The notes below the pieces were generated by a model, which saw only the letters and a list, made by a program, of their open reading frames with translations, did no database searches and was not told where the DNA came from. Source: a virus (taxonomy: Duplodnaviria > Caudoviricetes). From it: 25,518 nucleotides of DNA. The translations under genes and the position numbers were made by a program. Positions 2,099 through 6,849 of this stretch are shown piece by piece (the stretch's first letter is position 1; every line of letters begins with the position of its first letter). The DNA lies in the IMG/VR virus record IMGVR_UViG_3300021368_000025, positions 1 through 25,518 of that record. One strand, given 5' to 3'.

Positions 2099-2124
2099 AA
2101 AAAAGGGGACCTAAAGGTCCCCCT
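2098..2124 (-). terminator. Intrinsic terminator
   Basis: Minus strand AAGGGGACC-TTTA-GGTCCCCTT followed by a T run, just after the stop of 2132..2347. Confidence 0.85.
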
Positions 2125-2131
2125 TACGAGG

Positions 2132-2347
2132 TCATTCTGCTGCTGGTTCTTCTTTTCTAGCTAGAAGAGCTTTCTCAACTACATCAAGTAGTTGATCATC
2201 AACATCAGTCTTGGTTAGCGAGACTGCTTTTCTAAGGATATGAAGGCAGATCTCAACAAGCTTCTCGCCAAGTTCCTCATCATTGGGAAGTTTAGCAAGA
2301 GCAGCATCAACAATCTTTGATGCTAGGGGGAGTAGGAAGGCAAGCAT
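2132..2347 (-). CDS. Small hypothetical protein
   Basis: 71-aa ORF (MLAFLLPLASKIVDAALAKLP...KTDVDDQLL) between an ATAAATA motif and a terminator. Confidence 0.75.
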   Translation of the reverse strand: MLAFLLPLASKIVDAALAKLPNDEELGEKLVEICLHILRKAVSLTKTDVDDQLLDVVEKALLARKEEPAAE

Positions 2348-2370: not shown

Positions 2371-2604
2371 CTATTTATTCTTGTTCTTATGCTTCCAAGC
2401 AGTAGCATAAGCAATTCCCTCTTTCTCTTTAGGATAGTTCTTTTTTATATGCTTGACCATCCGTTCATACTTTTTTCCAGGAGGTGCTACCTCCTCTAGA
2501 TCAACAGATTCTTTTTGCTGACTAGTAAGGGCTTTGAGAATATACTTTTTAGTTTTCTTTTTCTCTCCCTTATCTTTCGGGGCACCGTCTTCAATGCTAG
2601 GCAT
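2371..2604 (-). CDS. Basic hypothetical protein; probably also, or mainly, the -1 frameshift extension of 2625..3413
   Basis: 77-aa ORF with no clear SD before its ATG. The frame is open upstream to the A_AAA_AAG heptamer at 2628-2634. Confidence 0.65.
   Translation of the reverse strand: MPSIEDGAPKDKGEKKKTKKYILKALTSQQKESVDLEEVAPPGKKYERMVKHIKKNYPKEKEGIAYATAWKHKNKNK
2372..2378 (-). promoter_or_regulatory. Probable late promoter ATAAATA overlapping the stop of 2371..2604
   Basis: ATAAATA 24 nt upstream of the ATG at 2347. Confidence 0.55.
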
Positions 2605-2650
2605 TACTTCGACAGATGCCGAACTTACTTTTTTTCTTCTTCGATCTCCT
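2581..2650 (-). promoter_or_regulatory. Putative programmed -1 ribosomal frameshift signal
   Basis: AGGAG (2646-2650), 11-nt spacer, in-frame A_AAA_AAG (2628-2634), UAA, then a stem-loop starting 7 nt after the heptamer (2581-2620). Confidence 0.65.
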
Positions 2651-3413
2651 TAGCGAGCTCAGCAGATTCCTTCATCTTCTTTTTCTTGCCGATCAGTTTG
2701 GTAACTTTCTTACGGCGAGCAAGTAGATACTTGTCAGACTTATCGTGGTCACCGTCATTGTCGATGTCCTTGTCTTCCTTACCTACGGGATCAAGTTTCT
2801 TCTCGGTGATCTCATCGCCAGTTGGTTCGTAACCTGCCTTGACACAGTTGTCTACAGTCTTACCACCTTTCTTTTTGGTGCCAGCAAGCTTGTAACCTTT
2901 CCAACATGCTTTACCGTCTAGACCCTTTGCCTTACCTTCAATAACATACTCAACGCCATTGAGTTCAAAGGTATAAGACTCTTTCTTCATATTCTTATCT
3001 TCCTTCTGACACTTGGAGCACCCCTTCCCGTTACAGTAAGAGCAGTCCCCACAGGATTCTTTCGCAACCACCTTCGTGGTGTCTTTAATCTCTGCTCCAT
3101 GAGACTGTTTGACACCTGCACCGACACGTAGATTGGTAGCAGGATCAGGAGCACCCGCATTTGCTTTGGGATCTTTTGTAGAAAAATCATCTTCTTTATT
3201 CTCCTTGCCAGAGAGGTCAGGGATAGAAGTGGAAGCATCAGCACCACCTTCTCTAGTTGGTGTCTCAGGTCCTTGCTTCATTTCAGCAGGGATACTTTCT
3301 TGGAGATGCTGACCGAAACCACCGCCGCTCATCCAGCGACCATAGGATTCAACTAGAGCTTTCGAGAAGTCATCATTATGTTTAATATCAGTCGTTGGTT
3401 TTTGGCGTTCCAT
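2625..3413 (-). CDS. Late-expressed modular low-complexity protein, probably head/prohead-associated
   Basis: 262 aa downstream of TATAAATA. Modules include CxxCxxCxGxGCxxC, KACWKGYK...KTVDNCVK and DKDIDNDGDHDKSD, separated by xES/xTE-type sites. Confidence 0.75.
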   Translation of the reverse strand: MERQKPTTDIKHNDDFSKALVESYGRWMSGGGFGQHLQESIPAEMKQGPETPTREGGADASTSIPDLSGKENKEDDFSTKDPKANAGAPDPATNLRVGAGVKQSHGAEIKDTTKVVAKESCGDCSYCNGKGCSKCQKEDKNMKKESYTFELNGVEYVIEGKAKGLDGKACWKGYKLAGTKKKGGKTVDNCVKAGYEPTGDEITEKKLDPVGKEDKDIDNDGDHDKSDKYLLARRKKVTKLIGKKKKMKESAELAKEIEEEKK

Positions 3414-3660
3414 TATTTGTAAAGATACTACTTTTCCTTTCTTTATTTATAGTCTCTTGTACTTCACGTATGTCAGATACCCAAGCACGGAACATATCAC
3501 CACTCTCAGTAATAGCGATAACATAGTTAGGACCAGCACGATGTACCCTTCCTTTCTCTCCTGTATTGGTATTAAACACTAGATCTCCTGGTTGATAAAC
3601 CTCTTTCAGGCGAAACCGTTGCTGGTCTGCCGTCTTTTTGATGTCCCTAAAATCTCTCAT
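3388..3660 (-). CDS. Small hypothetical protein, possible SH3/KOW-like beta-barrel
   Basis: 90 aa with an ATGA overlap with the nucleotidyltransferase. The pattern YQPGDLV...GEKGRVHRAGPNYVIAITESGDMFRAWVSDI suggests short beta-strands. Confidence 0.75.
   Translation of the reverse strand: MRDFRDIKKTADQQRFRLKEVYQPGDLVFNTNTGEKGRVHRAGPNYVIAITESGDMFRAWVSDIREVQETINKERKSSIFTNNGTPKTND
3444..3451 (-). promoter_or_regulatory. T4-type late promoter TATAAATA, embedded in the upstream CDS
   Basis: Exact TATAAATA 30 nt upstream of the ATG at 3413. Confidence 0.75.
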
Positions 3661-4208: not shown

Positions 4209-5416
4209 TTCCCGTCAACCCAATCCTTTGATACATTAAAGTTAGCAACACTGAACTGTAGACGGTCCACTAATTTAACTGCCGTGGCATCCTCTTGGAT
4301 AGCAACATATCCTTCTGGAGAGGTTACCTCGTAACCATTCTCACTTCTCAGATAGGTACGAATTTTCTCACCCTTCTCCAGTTTACGAATGAAGAGTAGT
4401 TTAGCTTGCTGTAATGTAGTATATAGACCCACTGTTTTAAGAAGAGCAGTTTCATTTGCTTCAATAAAGTCTAGACCATCATATAGTTTCTTCAGTTTAC
4501 CTGCTTTTGCTTTTGGTGTCTTAACTTTGTCTGCTGCCTTCTTCACTTCCCCCTCAAAATATTGTTTAAAATCACGTACAAAGTTAGAAGCACTACTAAC
4601 TCGTCGTCCCTGTCTGACATACGTGTTGAAATAGATCTTGAGTCGGGGTCCTACAGTTAACTGATCGTTTGCTTCGATCTGTTCTGCTACACTATCTAGA
4701 AATGACGCTGATTGATTTACTAGAGTAGTAGATGCTCTCTTCATACTCTTTAGCTTATTAACTTCTTGCTGAGTAAGAAGAACATCTTTACCAAGTTGGT
4801 CAGTCTCAGCACTGAGTACAAGCACATCATCAGTTTGCTTGAGTTGATTTATATCGTAACCAAAAGTAGCAGACAGAGAATCAACACTGTTGCCTCTATA
4901 CGTTGTGTGAAAGACAACTCCGATCTTGGCCCTCTTTGCCTTCTCGTAGAGAGCGGAGCTTTCTGGTATGCAATATGTAATTGTGTTAGGGGTGAACGTG
5001 ATACATCGTTCTCCGTTAATTGTTTCATACTTCTTGTCGTCTGTGAACAGAAGATCCCCTTGTGCCACCCCATTAATACCAAGGGCAGGAAAATACTTAA
5101 GGGCATCTTTTAGTTTAGAAACAAGTCCAGGAGCATGACCATGATTGACATCAACATCAGTGTCTCTAAAATTAATCTTGGCATTTTTGTTGAACACCGA
5201 CTTGGTGCCCACAAAAAATCTAGATGAACCAGGATAGGTCCCACAGAAAATAGCAGGAGCACCATCCCATTTCGTAGTAATTTTGAATGTATTCTTTTGT
5301 TTGCCACTGAATGTCTGGGCAAGTTCATCCAAGAACATGAAAGCATCTCTTGCTCCTTGACTACCGTCAAAGAGGATACTGTCTTCTAAGTGTTCTAGGT
5401 GGGTGTTCTTAGACAT
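4205..5416 (-). CDS. Conserved phage protein with ATP-dependent ligase/covalent nucleotidyltransferase-like motifs
   Basis: 403 aa: TTKWDGAP (motif I KxDG), QGDLLF (motif III-like), PEGYV (motif IV), VKLVDR (motif V-like), and an N-terminal HLEHLED. The CDS is secure; the function is inferred. Confidence 0.7.
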   Translation of the reverse strand: MSKNTHLEHLEDSILFDGSQGARDAFMFLDELAQTFSGKQKNTFKITTKWDGAPAIFCGTYPGSSRFFVGTKSVFNKNAKINFRDTDVDVNHGHAPGLVSKLKDALKYFPALGINGVAQGDLLFTDDKKYETINGERCITFTPNTITYCIPESSALYEKAKRAKIGVVFHTTYRGNSVDSLSATFGYDINQLKQTDDVLVLSAETDQLGKDVLLTQQEVNKLKSMKRASTTLVNQSASFLDSVAEQIEANDQLTVGPRLKIYFNTYVRQGRRVSSASNFVRDFKQYFEGEVKKAADKVKTPKAKAGKLKKLYDGLDFIEANETALLKTVGLYTTLQQAKLLFIRKLEKGEKIRTYLRSENGYEVTSPEGYVAIQEDATAVKLVDRLQFSVANFNVSKDWVDGK

Positions 5417-6849
5417 CAGTACAGTTTTCCGAAAGGTCCGAAGCGGTCGCCCTTCTTCTGGGCGAGGAACGACATGTCAGTCATGAACTGGTTACGTTCC
5501 TTTTCTTTCATGCCCATGAGCATGTCAAGGAAGTACAGTTGCATCATCTTTGACGTAGCAACGTGGGTTTCTGTACCAAGAACAACCATGAGATTGTTGA
5601 CTGCCTCGTCTTCATCGACAACAGTGTCAACCCCCTTTTGCCTCAGTGACTTGATTATCTTAGCATACTCACCCTGTACCTTGGTGAAGTCAGTCAGACT
5701 CTTTGGATACTGTCCATGCCTGTTGTCAAACCTGACTCCATAGTCAATCATCAGTTTTCTTACCATGTCAACAGGTGCCTTACCTAGGCGAGCAGCGCCT
5801 GCTCCCTCTTGTGTAGGTTCCCACTTCAGATTAGAGAATCCAGAACTATCGTTGCCTTTGATCTGAAAATTGTATACAGACTTAGGTGCCTGTACAAAAA
5901 TTCTGGTGTCTTGTGTGCCAAATGAAGTAACACCTTTCTTGTTTTTACCCAAAGATAAGTCAATCTTGACCTTATCTATTTCAAAATACATCTGTTTGTA
6001 TGACTCAAACGCCGCTTCGTCTAAGTTTACCCTCTCATATCTTGCTTCTTTACCCGAGATTTTCTTGAGTGATACTCCAACGATAATCTCATCCCTAAAC
6101 ATTGTTCTAAGGATAGCATTTAGTTCTTGGATGGTTTGACTGCTACCACCATCAACTAGATCTTGAATTTGTCTAATAGTTTTATTAGAATCCTTGATCA
6201 ACCATATGTCAGCAGGGTTCCAATTGTCTTTCTGGGAGATTTGATACTTGGTTCTAACGAGATCAGTAACCCATTTCATGAATCCACCATCACGATTGAA
6301 CTCAGTAAACCTAGGATTAGCGTACTCAACCAGCATAGTCTTCTGCTGCTTGTAGTAATCATCTAACCATGAGTCATCAAACTCTAATTGTGATCTCTTC
6401 CATATCTTTTGTAGCGCCATGTACGCCACACGATCCTTTCGGATATCTTCTGAAGAATTATATCTTTTGTTCTCTCTAAGAACTCGCTTCAAGATATAAG
6501 CAGACCCTCTTTCTTGAGCAGCAGTAGTCTTAGCATCTGGTTGTCCGCCACCAGCAGTCTTACCTGTAATTTCAAAGACTATTTTCTTGTTATCAAGATC
6601 AATTTGATACTTGTCTCTGCTAGATAGACCACCAGGATTCTTAGCAATGACATCCAGCAACATAGAACTATTCAGATAGATCTTATAAGTGCCTTGTCTA
6701 TTAGTAGGCCACTTAAATCCACTATCTGCTTTCTCTGGTCTCAACCAACCAGATGTAGCAACCTCTTCTAAGATAGCTTTCAGTGCTGCCTTTGCTGGAT
6801 TGGGCACTGGAGATACTATCTGAGATATATTAGCAGGTTGTTTTGCCAT
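5416..6849 (-). CDS. Hypothetical protein, putative PD-(D/E)xK-fold nuclease-like
   Basis: 477 aa with a GGAGG RBS. It contains TTAAQE, WNPADIW and IVGVSLKK, an E...PxD...SxK arrangement seen in restriction-like folds. The function is inferred. Confidence 0.6.
   Translation of the reverse strand: MAKQPANISQIVSPVPNPAKAALKAILEEVATSGWLRPEKADSGFKWPTNRQGTYKIYLNSSMLLDVIAKNPGGLSSRDKYQIDLDNKKIVFEITGKTAGGGQPDAKTTAAQERGSAYILKRVLRENKRYNSSEDIRKDRVAYMALQKIWKRSQLEFDDSWLDDYYKQQKTMLVEYANPRFTEFNRDGGFMKWVTDLVRTKYQISQKDNWNPADIWLIKDSNKTIRQIQDLVDGGSSQTIQELNAILRTMFRDEIIVGVSLKKISGKEARYERVNLDEAAFESYKQMYFEIDKVKIDLSLGKNKKGVTSFGTQDTRIFVQAPKSVYNFQIKGNDSSGFSNLKWEPTQEGAGAARLGKAPVDMVRKLMIDYGVRFDNRHGQYPKSLTDFTKVQGEYAKIIKSLRQKGVDTVVDEDEAVNNLMVVLGTETHVATSKMMQLYFLDMLMGMKEKERNQFMTDMSFLAQKKGDRFGPFGKLY

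Follow-up and report, generated by a model that had tools for sequence, protein, structure and literature searches.

A predicted, conserved dnaX-type −1 frameshift cassette at an unannotated late gene of T4-like cyanophages

Of the frameshift systems described so far, the closest in mechanism to the junction analysed here is Escherichia coli dnaX, the source of tau and gamma, which combines the slippery heptamer A_AAA_AAG with a Shine-Dalgarno (SD) motif within 9-14 nt, a simple 3' hairpin and a single tRNA-Lys(UUU) (PMC5389563, PMC5009743), the last perhaps shared by the likely host group of the cyanophage. The dnaX shift truncates its product (PMC5389563, PMC5009743), whereas in the cyanophage the zero-frame stop adjoins the heptamer and a shift would extend the protein; dnaX is also a replication gene, whereas the cyanophage locus is a phage late gene. 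In outcome, closer parallels are gene 10 of T7 and T3 and the structural genes of Lactobacillus phage A2 and Listeria phages A118, A500 and PSA, where a fraction of the protein from a late gene gains a C-terminal extension through a shift close to the gene's end, and where in-frame and frameshifted versions coexist among relatives (PMC5009743). Unlike these, the cyanophage protein is neither a capsid nor a tail protein and lacks an Ig-like domain, its tail consists of short basic modules, the phage is a T4-like myovirus, and a third layout with a separate gene exists. As a protein, it is best compared with the gp21-processed T4 proteins IPI-III, gp67 and gp68, since it is likewise late and highly charged, with L/I-X-E at module borders and, in its separate-gene form, a putative targeting peptide of 10 residues at the start (PMC9958956, PMC9026906, PMC5694885). 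It differs from them in that no Pfam, PDB or named PHROG match shows sequence homology and no virion-proteome detection is on record for it, and the parts of PMC9958956, PMC9026906 and PMC5694885 that concern the T4 proteins mention no frameshift.

The locus lies on the minus strand of IMG/VR record IMGVR_UViG_3300021368_000025, which was analysed as one stretch of 25,518 nt (the window; about 25.5 kb, the whole virus record). Its gene order, read from translations (gp46, cobS, clamp and loader, polymerase, uvsX, helicase, mazG), is that of a T4-like cyanophage. The first of the two reading frames at the junction, ORF A, matches 141 phage records at the DNA level, nearly all from Synechococcus phages, and 42 at the protein level, and is the orthologue of S-PM2 p142 (T4-GC 842, phrog_4359); S-PM2 p142/p143 correspond to T4-GC 842/843, and Syn1_163/164 are orthologous at the same locus. 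In the GenBank entries of all ten phage records opened, ORF A and the ORF after it stand as two separate hypothetical genes with no note of recoding. PHROGs offers only families of unknown function (phrog_4359 for ORF A, phrog_11250 for the −1 extension), Pfam has no match for either ORF, the PDB has none, the Atlas clusters are hypothetical apart from a weak Dockerin lead, and Rfam has no match near its gathering score. The neighbours are a cytidyltransferase-like gene, the phrog_402 gene and a head protein with an Ig-like domain. A 90-aa gene at 3388-3660 is labelled a ribonucleotide reductase subunit in PHROGs and GenBank and matches the C-terminal part of cytidyltransferase families; the label is probably a mislabel. 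Elsewhere in the window, a 477-aa ORF (5416-6849) lies between mazG and a phrog_455 gene. The parts of the junction are collected in Table 1.

Table 1. Positions of the predicted frameshift cassette and its surroundings in the window
Feature	Position	Strand	Remarks
Late-promoter-like NATAAATA	3444..3451	-	30 nt upstream of ORF A start; motif match, putative function
ORF A, 262 aa, Lys/Glu-rich, modular, mostly disordered in prediction	2625..3413	-	S-PM2 p142 family
Asp-rich loop module, conserved (residues 205-236), preceded by I-x-E motif	2706..2801	-	
Internal SD-like AAGGAG	2646..2651	-	11-nt spacer to heptamer
Slippery heptamer A_AAA_AAG, in frame	2628..2634	-	last two Lys codons of ORF A
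Zero-frame stop TAA	2625..2627	-	−1 frame reads GTA (Val, non-start codon)
3' hairpin	2581..2620	-	begins 7 nt past heptamer; covers ATG at 2604
−1 extension, 85 aa, phrog_11250	2371..2628	-	includes 77-codon ORF 2371-2604; VEVMP-type motif conserved at start
Mobile basic module, preceded by L-x-E motif	2371..2490	-	in ORF B here; in frame inside ORF A in 3 relatives
Second NATAAATA late-promoter motif	2372..2379	-	last codons of extension, upstream of next gene
Small conserved downstream gene, phrog_402	2132..2347	-	T4-GC 424 position
Intrinsic-terminator-like hairpin closing the unit	2102..2125	-	

An earlier note on this DNA, made from the letters alone, had proposed a dnaX-like −1 cassette here, and each of its elements (A_AAA_AAG, SD, 3' hairpin and open −1 frame) can be located. 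The 262-aa ORF ends in the in-frame heptamer and TAA as claimed, with seven A in the run (2635-2629); the SD-like motif has the spacing given for it; the minimum free energy fold reproduces the proposed pairing; and the −1 frame runs without a stop for 85 codons from the GTA into the downstream ORF, so that translation in the 0 and −1 frames gives predicted products of 262 and 347 aa. The downstream ORF, said to lack a clear SD of its own, has no SD match before its ATG, which sits inside the hairpin. The description of the gene as late agrees with the NATAAATA motif upstream, a type of late-promoter motif described for cyanomyoviruses (PMC2984593); no sigma-70-like site was found on the coding strand. 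The note's further proposals, that the protein is probably virion-associated and that its two forms are made at a fixed ratio, are conjectural. The hairpin (−17.4 kcal/mol) stands out against dinucleotide shuffles (z −3.0; 3 of 200 as good) and is only borderline against synonymous-codon shuffles (z −1.8, p 0.053). Very probably, the window carries a conserved dnaX-type −1 frameshift cassette at an unannotated gene, which would make 262-aa and 347-aa forms of a late protein.

A run of A before a stop might also be a homopolymer error that split a single ORF, a reading to which true in-frame fusions at the same locus in other phages lend some colour. The note had asked for a check of the A7 run: the contigs contain no 8-A run, although contigs cannot show minority transcripts. 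A contig from run X1, possibly the source sample, spans 2596-2787 with no differences and no gaps, and an indel at the slip site is listed in none of the four runs compared, out of 20 that contain the stretch. Because this contig bridges the site gap-free and heptamer and stop are kept in 39 distinct relatives, including six cultured phages, we regard sequencing error as excluded, its probability being negligible.

Homologous junctions were gathered from 10 phage records, an IMG/VR protein search (33 loci) and a search with an Asp-rich-motif pattern (120 of about 740 stretches). This pattern was placed about 30 residues before the stop, and the heptamer was used to pick no locus. Among the 164 sequences, the window included, 97 have the Asp-rich motif at most 40 residues from the stop, the rest having run off the locus or being other proteins; the VEVMP-type motif follows in 93 of the 97, always in the −1 frame and with no stop between. 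The 72 distinct junctions analysed from these 93 fall into two layouts. In type I (33 junctions, among them S-RSM4, S-WAM2, S-H9-1 and Sf-CH1b), the downstream frame, ORF B, begins at an ATG of its own, located at or beside the stop; in type II (39 junctions, among them the window, S-PM2, Syn1, S-H9-2, Sf-CH3, S-CAM1 and S-CAM3), there is no Met at the junction. In-frame A_AAA_AAG occurs in 39/39 of type II versus 0/33 of type I, so the conservation of the heptamer, on which the note had staked its reading, bears it out. So does the linker, which in every type II junction is open for 30 codons in the −1 frame, while the +1 frame is closed in all 39 and the 0 frame in 37. The heptamer lies directly before the stop in 37 of the 39 and one codon earlier in L119 and L156, and the base before the Lys pair stays A across Glu, Gly and Ser codons. 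The type II sequences are related, so these counts overstate the number of independent events. Since the slip site is kept in all 39 comparable relatives, ribosomes very likely shift −1 here and add the next small gene as a tail.

ORF B could instead be a separate gene throughout, reached by reinitiation, either at a GTG overlapping the stop or at the VEVMP motif's Met, with the heptamer merely coding for Lys-Lys. The sister group works in this way, with an ATG at or next to the stop in 33 of the 72 junctions; GTG overlaps a TGA in 23 of the 39 type II junctions and the Met is present in 38; and the ten GenBank records opened show two genes. Against this, the first −1 codon reads GTA in 15 junctions, the window's among them (GTG in 23, CTG in one), the tail of L119 is 49 codons without any ATG, GTG or TTG, an SD match precedes a candidate start in only 3/39, and the hairpin encloses the window's ATG. 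Conservation also extends to the residues ahead of the Met, which are open only in the −1 frame, and the Met is replaced by Leu in S-WAM2 and L119. We therefore consider the separate gene quite improbable for type II junctions. GTA and GTG junctions interleave on a tree, with 8 changes, 6 of them forced by well-supported branches; the tree is a quick, unrooted one of 60 of the 72 junctions with tail columns included, and recombination may explain some of the GTA/GTG changes. Because it is unrooted, we claim no direction of layout change.

Type I junctions have a peculiarity of their own: AAA AAA stands before the stop in 24 of 33 (23 of them as G_AAA_AAA) versus 13 of 249 internal Lys-Lys pairs, and such ends (for example, L007:2260-2270 and L010:2618-2627) are one base from a type II junction. 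They could be a relic or a weak slip site. The tails of L006, L045, L049, L078 and L154 retain a stretch similar to residues 9-20 of the type I N-terminus, which lies after the would-be targeting peptide and forms a hairpin of its own. In the S-PM2 tail (L002:3223-3507), a DUF3008 (PF11450) module stands where the window has another module.

The signals flanking the heptamer follow the same division. GGAG lies 11 nt before the heptamer in 24 of the 39 type II junctions, at 8 nt in 9 and at 14 nt in one, and is absent in 5, so that 25 of 39 fall within the 9-14 nt over which an SD stimulates −1 frameshifting (PMC5009743); no type I junction has GGAG within 30 nt upstream (0/33). In the 24 junctions with the 11-nt spacing, the first G of GGAG is supplied by six different amino acids, and in eight of them it comes through GCG, AGG or GGG, codons that account for 3-5% of those encoding the amino acid in question in these genes. 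The SD-like element is kept even where this takes a rare codon.

Downstream structure is more heterogeneous. Compared with synonymous shuffles, the 57 nt after the site have a mean z of −2.11 in type II, with p<=0.05 in only 21/39, and of −0.46 in type I, with p<=0.05 in 7/33. The note had proposed hairpin covariation as a check, and this holds in part: there are compensatory changes in the window's subgroup and none in 11 S-PM2/Syn1-type junctions. In the window's subgroup (15 sequences, 14 distinct), 89% of cells pair under a structure taken from the window itself, and 3 pairs have changed on both sides; the covariation score beats 500/500 shuffles, the number of both-side-changed pairs is not above shuffles (135/500), and RNAalifold recovers the same stem independently. 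The 11 S-PM2/Syn1-type junctions share a weak stem (consensus −5.8 kcal/mol). A 3' structure about 5-8 nt downstream, as in dnaX-type sites, is present in the window's subgroup, whereas the S-PM2/Syn1 subgroup has a weak one; other subgroups have unrelated hairpins at the same 5-7 nt spacing (for example, L006, L030 and L078). A single hairpin common to all junctions was rejected: RNAalifold on 27 aligned sequences finds none (−1.5 kcal/mol), and the stems differ by subgroup.

The heptamer itself is common in S-PM2 genes. A genome-wide avoidance was suggested by its absence from all 649 internal Lys-Lys pairs of A ORFs, but fails in the 247 ORFs of S-PM2, where it occurs in frame 17 times versus 19 expected, and in B ORFs, where 30 of 321 Lys-Lys pairs (9%) are spelled this way, two of them in the window's tail. 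Because neither S-PM2 nor B ORFs avoid it, its presence alone is weak evidence; the features beyond chance expectation are where it lies, how it is conserved and which signals flank it. Only two of the 17 S-PM2 heptamers are at a stop, with −1 frames of 95 and 163 codons, and away from stops the −1 frame closes within 25 codons in 14 of 15. The two heptamers in the window's tail (2476-2470 and 2446-2440) lead into −1 frames that close after 1 and 3 codons. The first is written GGA AAA AAG in 13 of 16 copies of its module, and the GGAGG upstream of it is also able to form local pairs. In S-PM2, p153, a C39-like peptidase gene (with its downstream region, L200:15534-16714), also ends in A_AAA_AAG-TAA, and its −1 frame of 163 codons matches phage lysozyme (PF00959, 1e-21), the annotated p154 being only its last 72 codons.

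The shiftiness of A_AAA_AAG has been tied to a single Lys tRNA (PMC5009743). One tRNA-Lys match, UUU, was found in each of five picocyanobacterial genomes reached via psbD, with a single pattern that may miss a divergent tRNA and in genomes that may not be the phage's host; a search via the phage hsp20 reached no cyanobacterial genomes. S-PM2 encodes a tRNA-Lys(UUU) itself, and frameshifting of csoS2 has been predicted in alpha-carboxysome bacteria (PMC5009743).

Two further alternatives bear on these signals. RNA polymerase could slip in the A run and add one A, giving the same fused protein; the window's run has 7 A, and minority transcripts would be invisible in contigs. Transcriptional slippage usually needs longer runs, though, and here the run is only 6 A in 4/39 junctions and never exceeds 7, and the signals present (the final G, the spacing of the SD, the hairpin 3' of the site) are of the ribosomal kind, all of which makes this origin exceedingly unlikely. 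Or the cassette may be the relic of a former fusion, slipping at a low, unselected rate and leaving the tail effectively silent, as might be thought from how common the heptamer is in S-PM2 genes, from tails down to 32 aa in Syn1 and Sf-CH3 with a weak hairpin in that subgroup, and from the unselected E. coli cases that are often near neutral (PMC5009743). That, too, is very unlikely, given a tail open and conserved at the protein level in 39/39, an SD kept by rare codons, and compensatory and unrelated hairpins that recur. A tail assembly chaperone with a G/GT frameshift was considered and rejected: the locus is not between the tail tube and tape measure genes. Vladimirov 2022 reportedly deals with the tail chaperones of T4-like phages.

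Under the favoured −1 shift, two tRNA-Lys(UUU) would exchange their pairing with AAA AAG for one with AAA AAA, translocation being slowed by the hairpin and by pairing of the SD with 16S rRNA. Some ribosomes would in this way move back by one base and extend the protein by the 85 residues of the downstream frame, and unshifted ribosomes would stop at TAA and release the 262-aa form.

Some relatives encode both parts in one frame. In one of 18 A-type proteins, P0017, which came from a search for longer proteins related to the tail, ORF A modules lead in frame into the VEVMP-type motif. Among 27 loci fetched with it, 20 (14 distinct) hold both parts in one ORF, a number that falls to 5 with a stricter N-terminal pattern; ORF B stands separately in one, and in 6 the pattern used finds no motif. 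The gene upstream is the same as in the window at all 20 fused loci, and the downstream head gene is the same at 18. With in-frame fused orthologues at the syntenic locus, the predicted frameshift product exists there as an ordinary protein, and comparison of the loci shows three layouts in sequence: in-frame fusion, heptamer junction and separate gene.

What the protein does may be approached through its modules. ORF A homologues contain 17% Lys and 11% Glu, and fold prediction for ORF A gives no confident fold (pLDDT 52, pTM 0.16). Both ORFs are built of short modules that have been gained, lost and moved between A and B and that start after [ILVM]-x-E in 116 of 146 cases versus 2.7% of all positions, a statistic that is partly circular as the borders were set by eye. 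T4 gp21 cuts after L/I-X-E (PMC9026906) and degrades core proteins to peptides (PMC9026906, PMC9958956, PMC5694885). The 10-residue peptide at the start of type I ORF B has F/Y at position 4 and F/L at position 7 in 33/33 and Glu at 9 or 10 in 27/33, a pattern in keeping with the positions described as important in the T4 capsid targeting sequence (positions from the literature, not the T4 sequence); such a peptide is not evident in ORF A. The supplement table of Sullivan 2010 has no proteomic mark for GC 842, 843 or 1080, S-PM2 and Syn1 orthologues included, in a column that is incomplete, being blank also for a known virion protein; for a protein cleaved into small peptides, a blank would be expected too. 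Together, the late-promoter motif, the L/I-X-E borders and the targeting-like peptide point to an internal head polyprotein. We lean towards reading the protein as a string of short basic modules split by L/I-X-E sites, which would be packed in the prohead core and cut by a gp21-type protease. In that case, the shift would supply the tail modules, which have no start codon or targeting peptide themselves, at less than 1:1.

The earlier note knew of no description of such a frameshift for this gene, and our search agrees: none was found in the literature on cyanophages, Kyanoviridae or phage structural proteins, subscription papers and bioRxiv supplements lying outside its scope. Term searches find no "frameshift" in PMC3037559, PMC2984593, PMC9602691 or PMC10976474 and nothing on this gene in PMC9602691, PMC10976474 or PMC12846349; two-thirds of the text of PMC5009743 is without mention of cyanophage. 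A prior prediction may exist. The mechanism is textbook dnaX type; what is new, in the literature searched, is its occurrence at this gene.

A broader interpretation is more tentative, and we hold it as a possibility a little short of even: T4-like cyanophages may use −1 frameshifting to set the dose of an internal head polyprotein that is processed by a protease. The locus would have three interchangeable states (in-frame fusion, frameshift fusion, and a separate gene carrying a targeting peptide of its own), a single base would divide two of these states, and the same stop-adjacent signal would join a peptidase to a lysozyme in S-PM2. For annotation, the finding would put right the description of this gene pair in numerous abundant marine phages, the cultured S-PM2, Syn1, S-CAM1 and S-CAM3 among them. 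Documented phage frameshifts mostly concern tail chaperones, capsid or tail proteins, and none for T4-like cyanophages was found in the literature searched. With its three natural layouts, the locus is well suited to asking by what route frameshifting comes about between one fused gene and a coupled pair, and which product ratio is selected.
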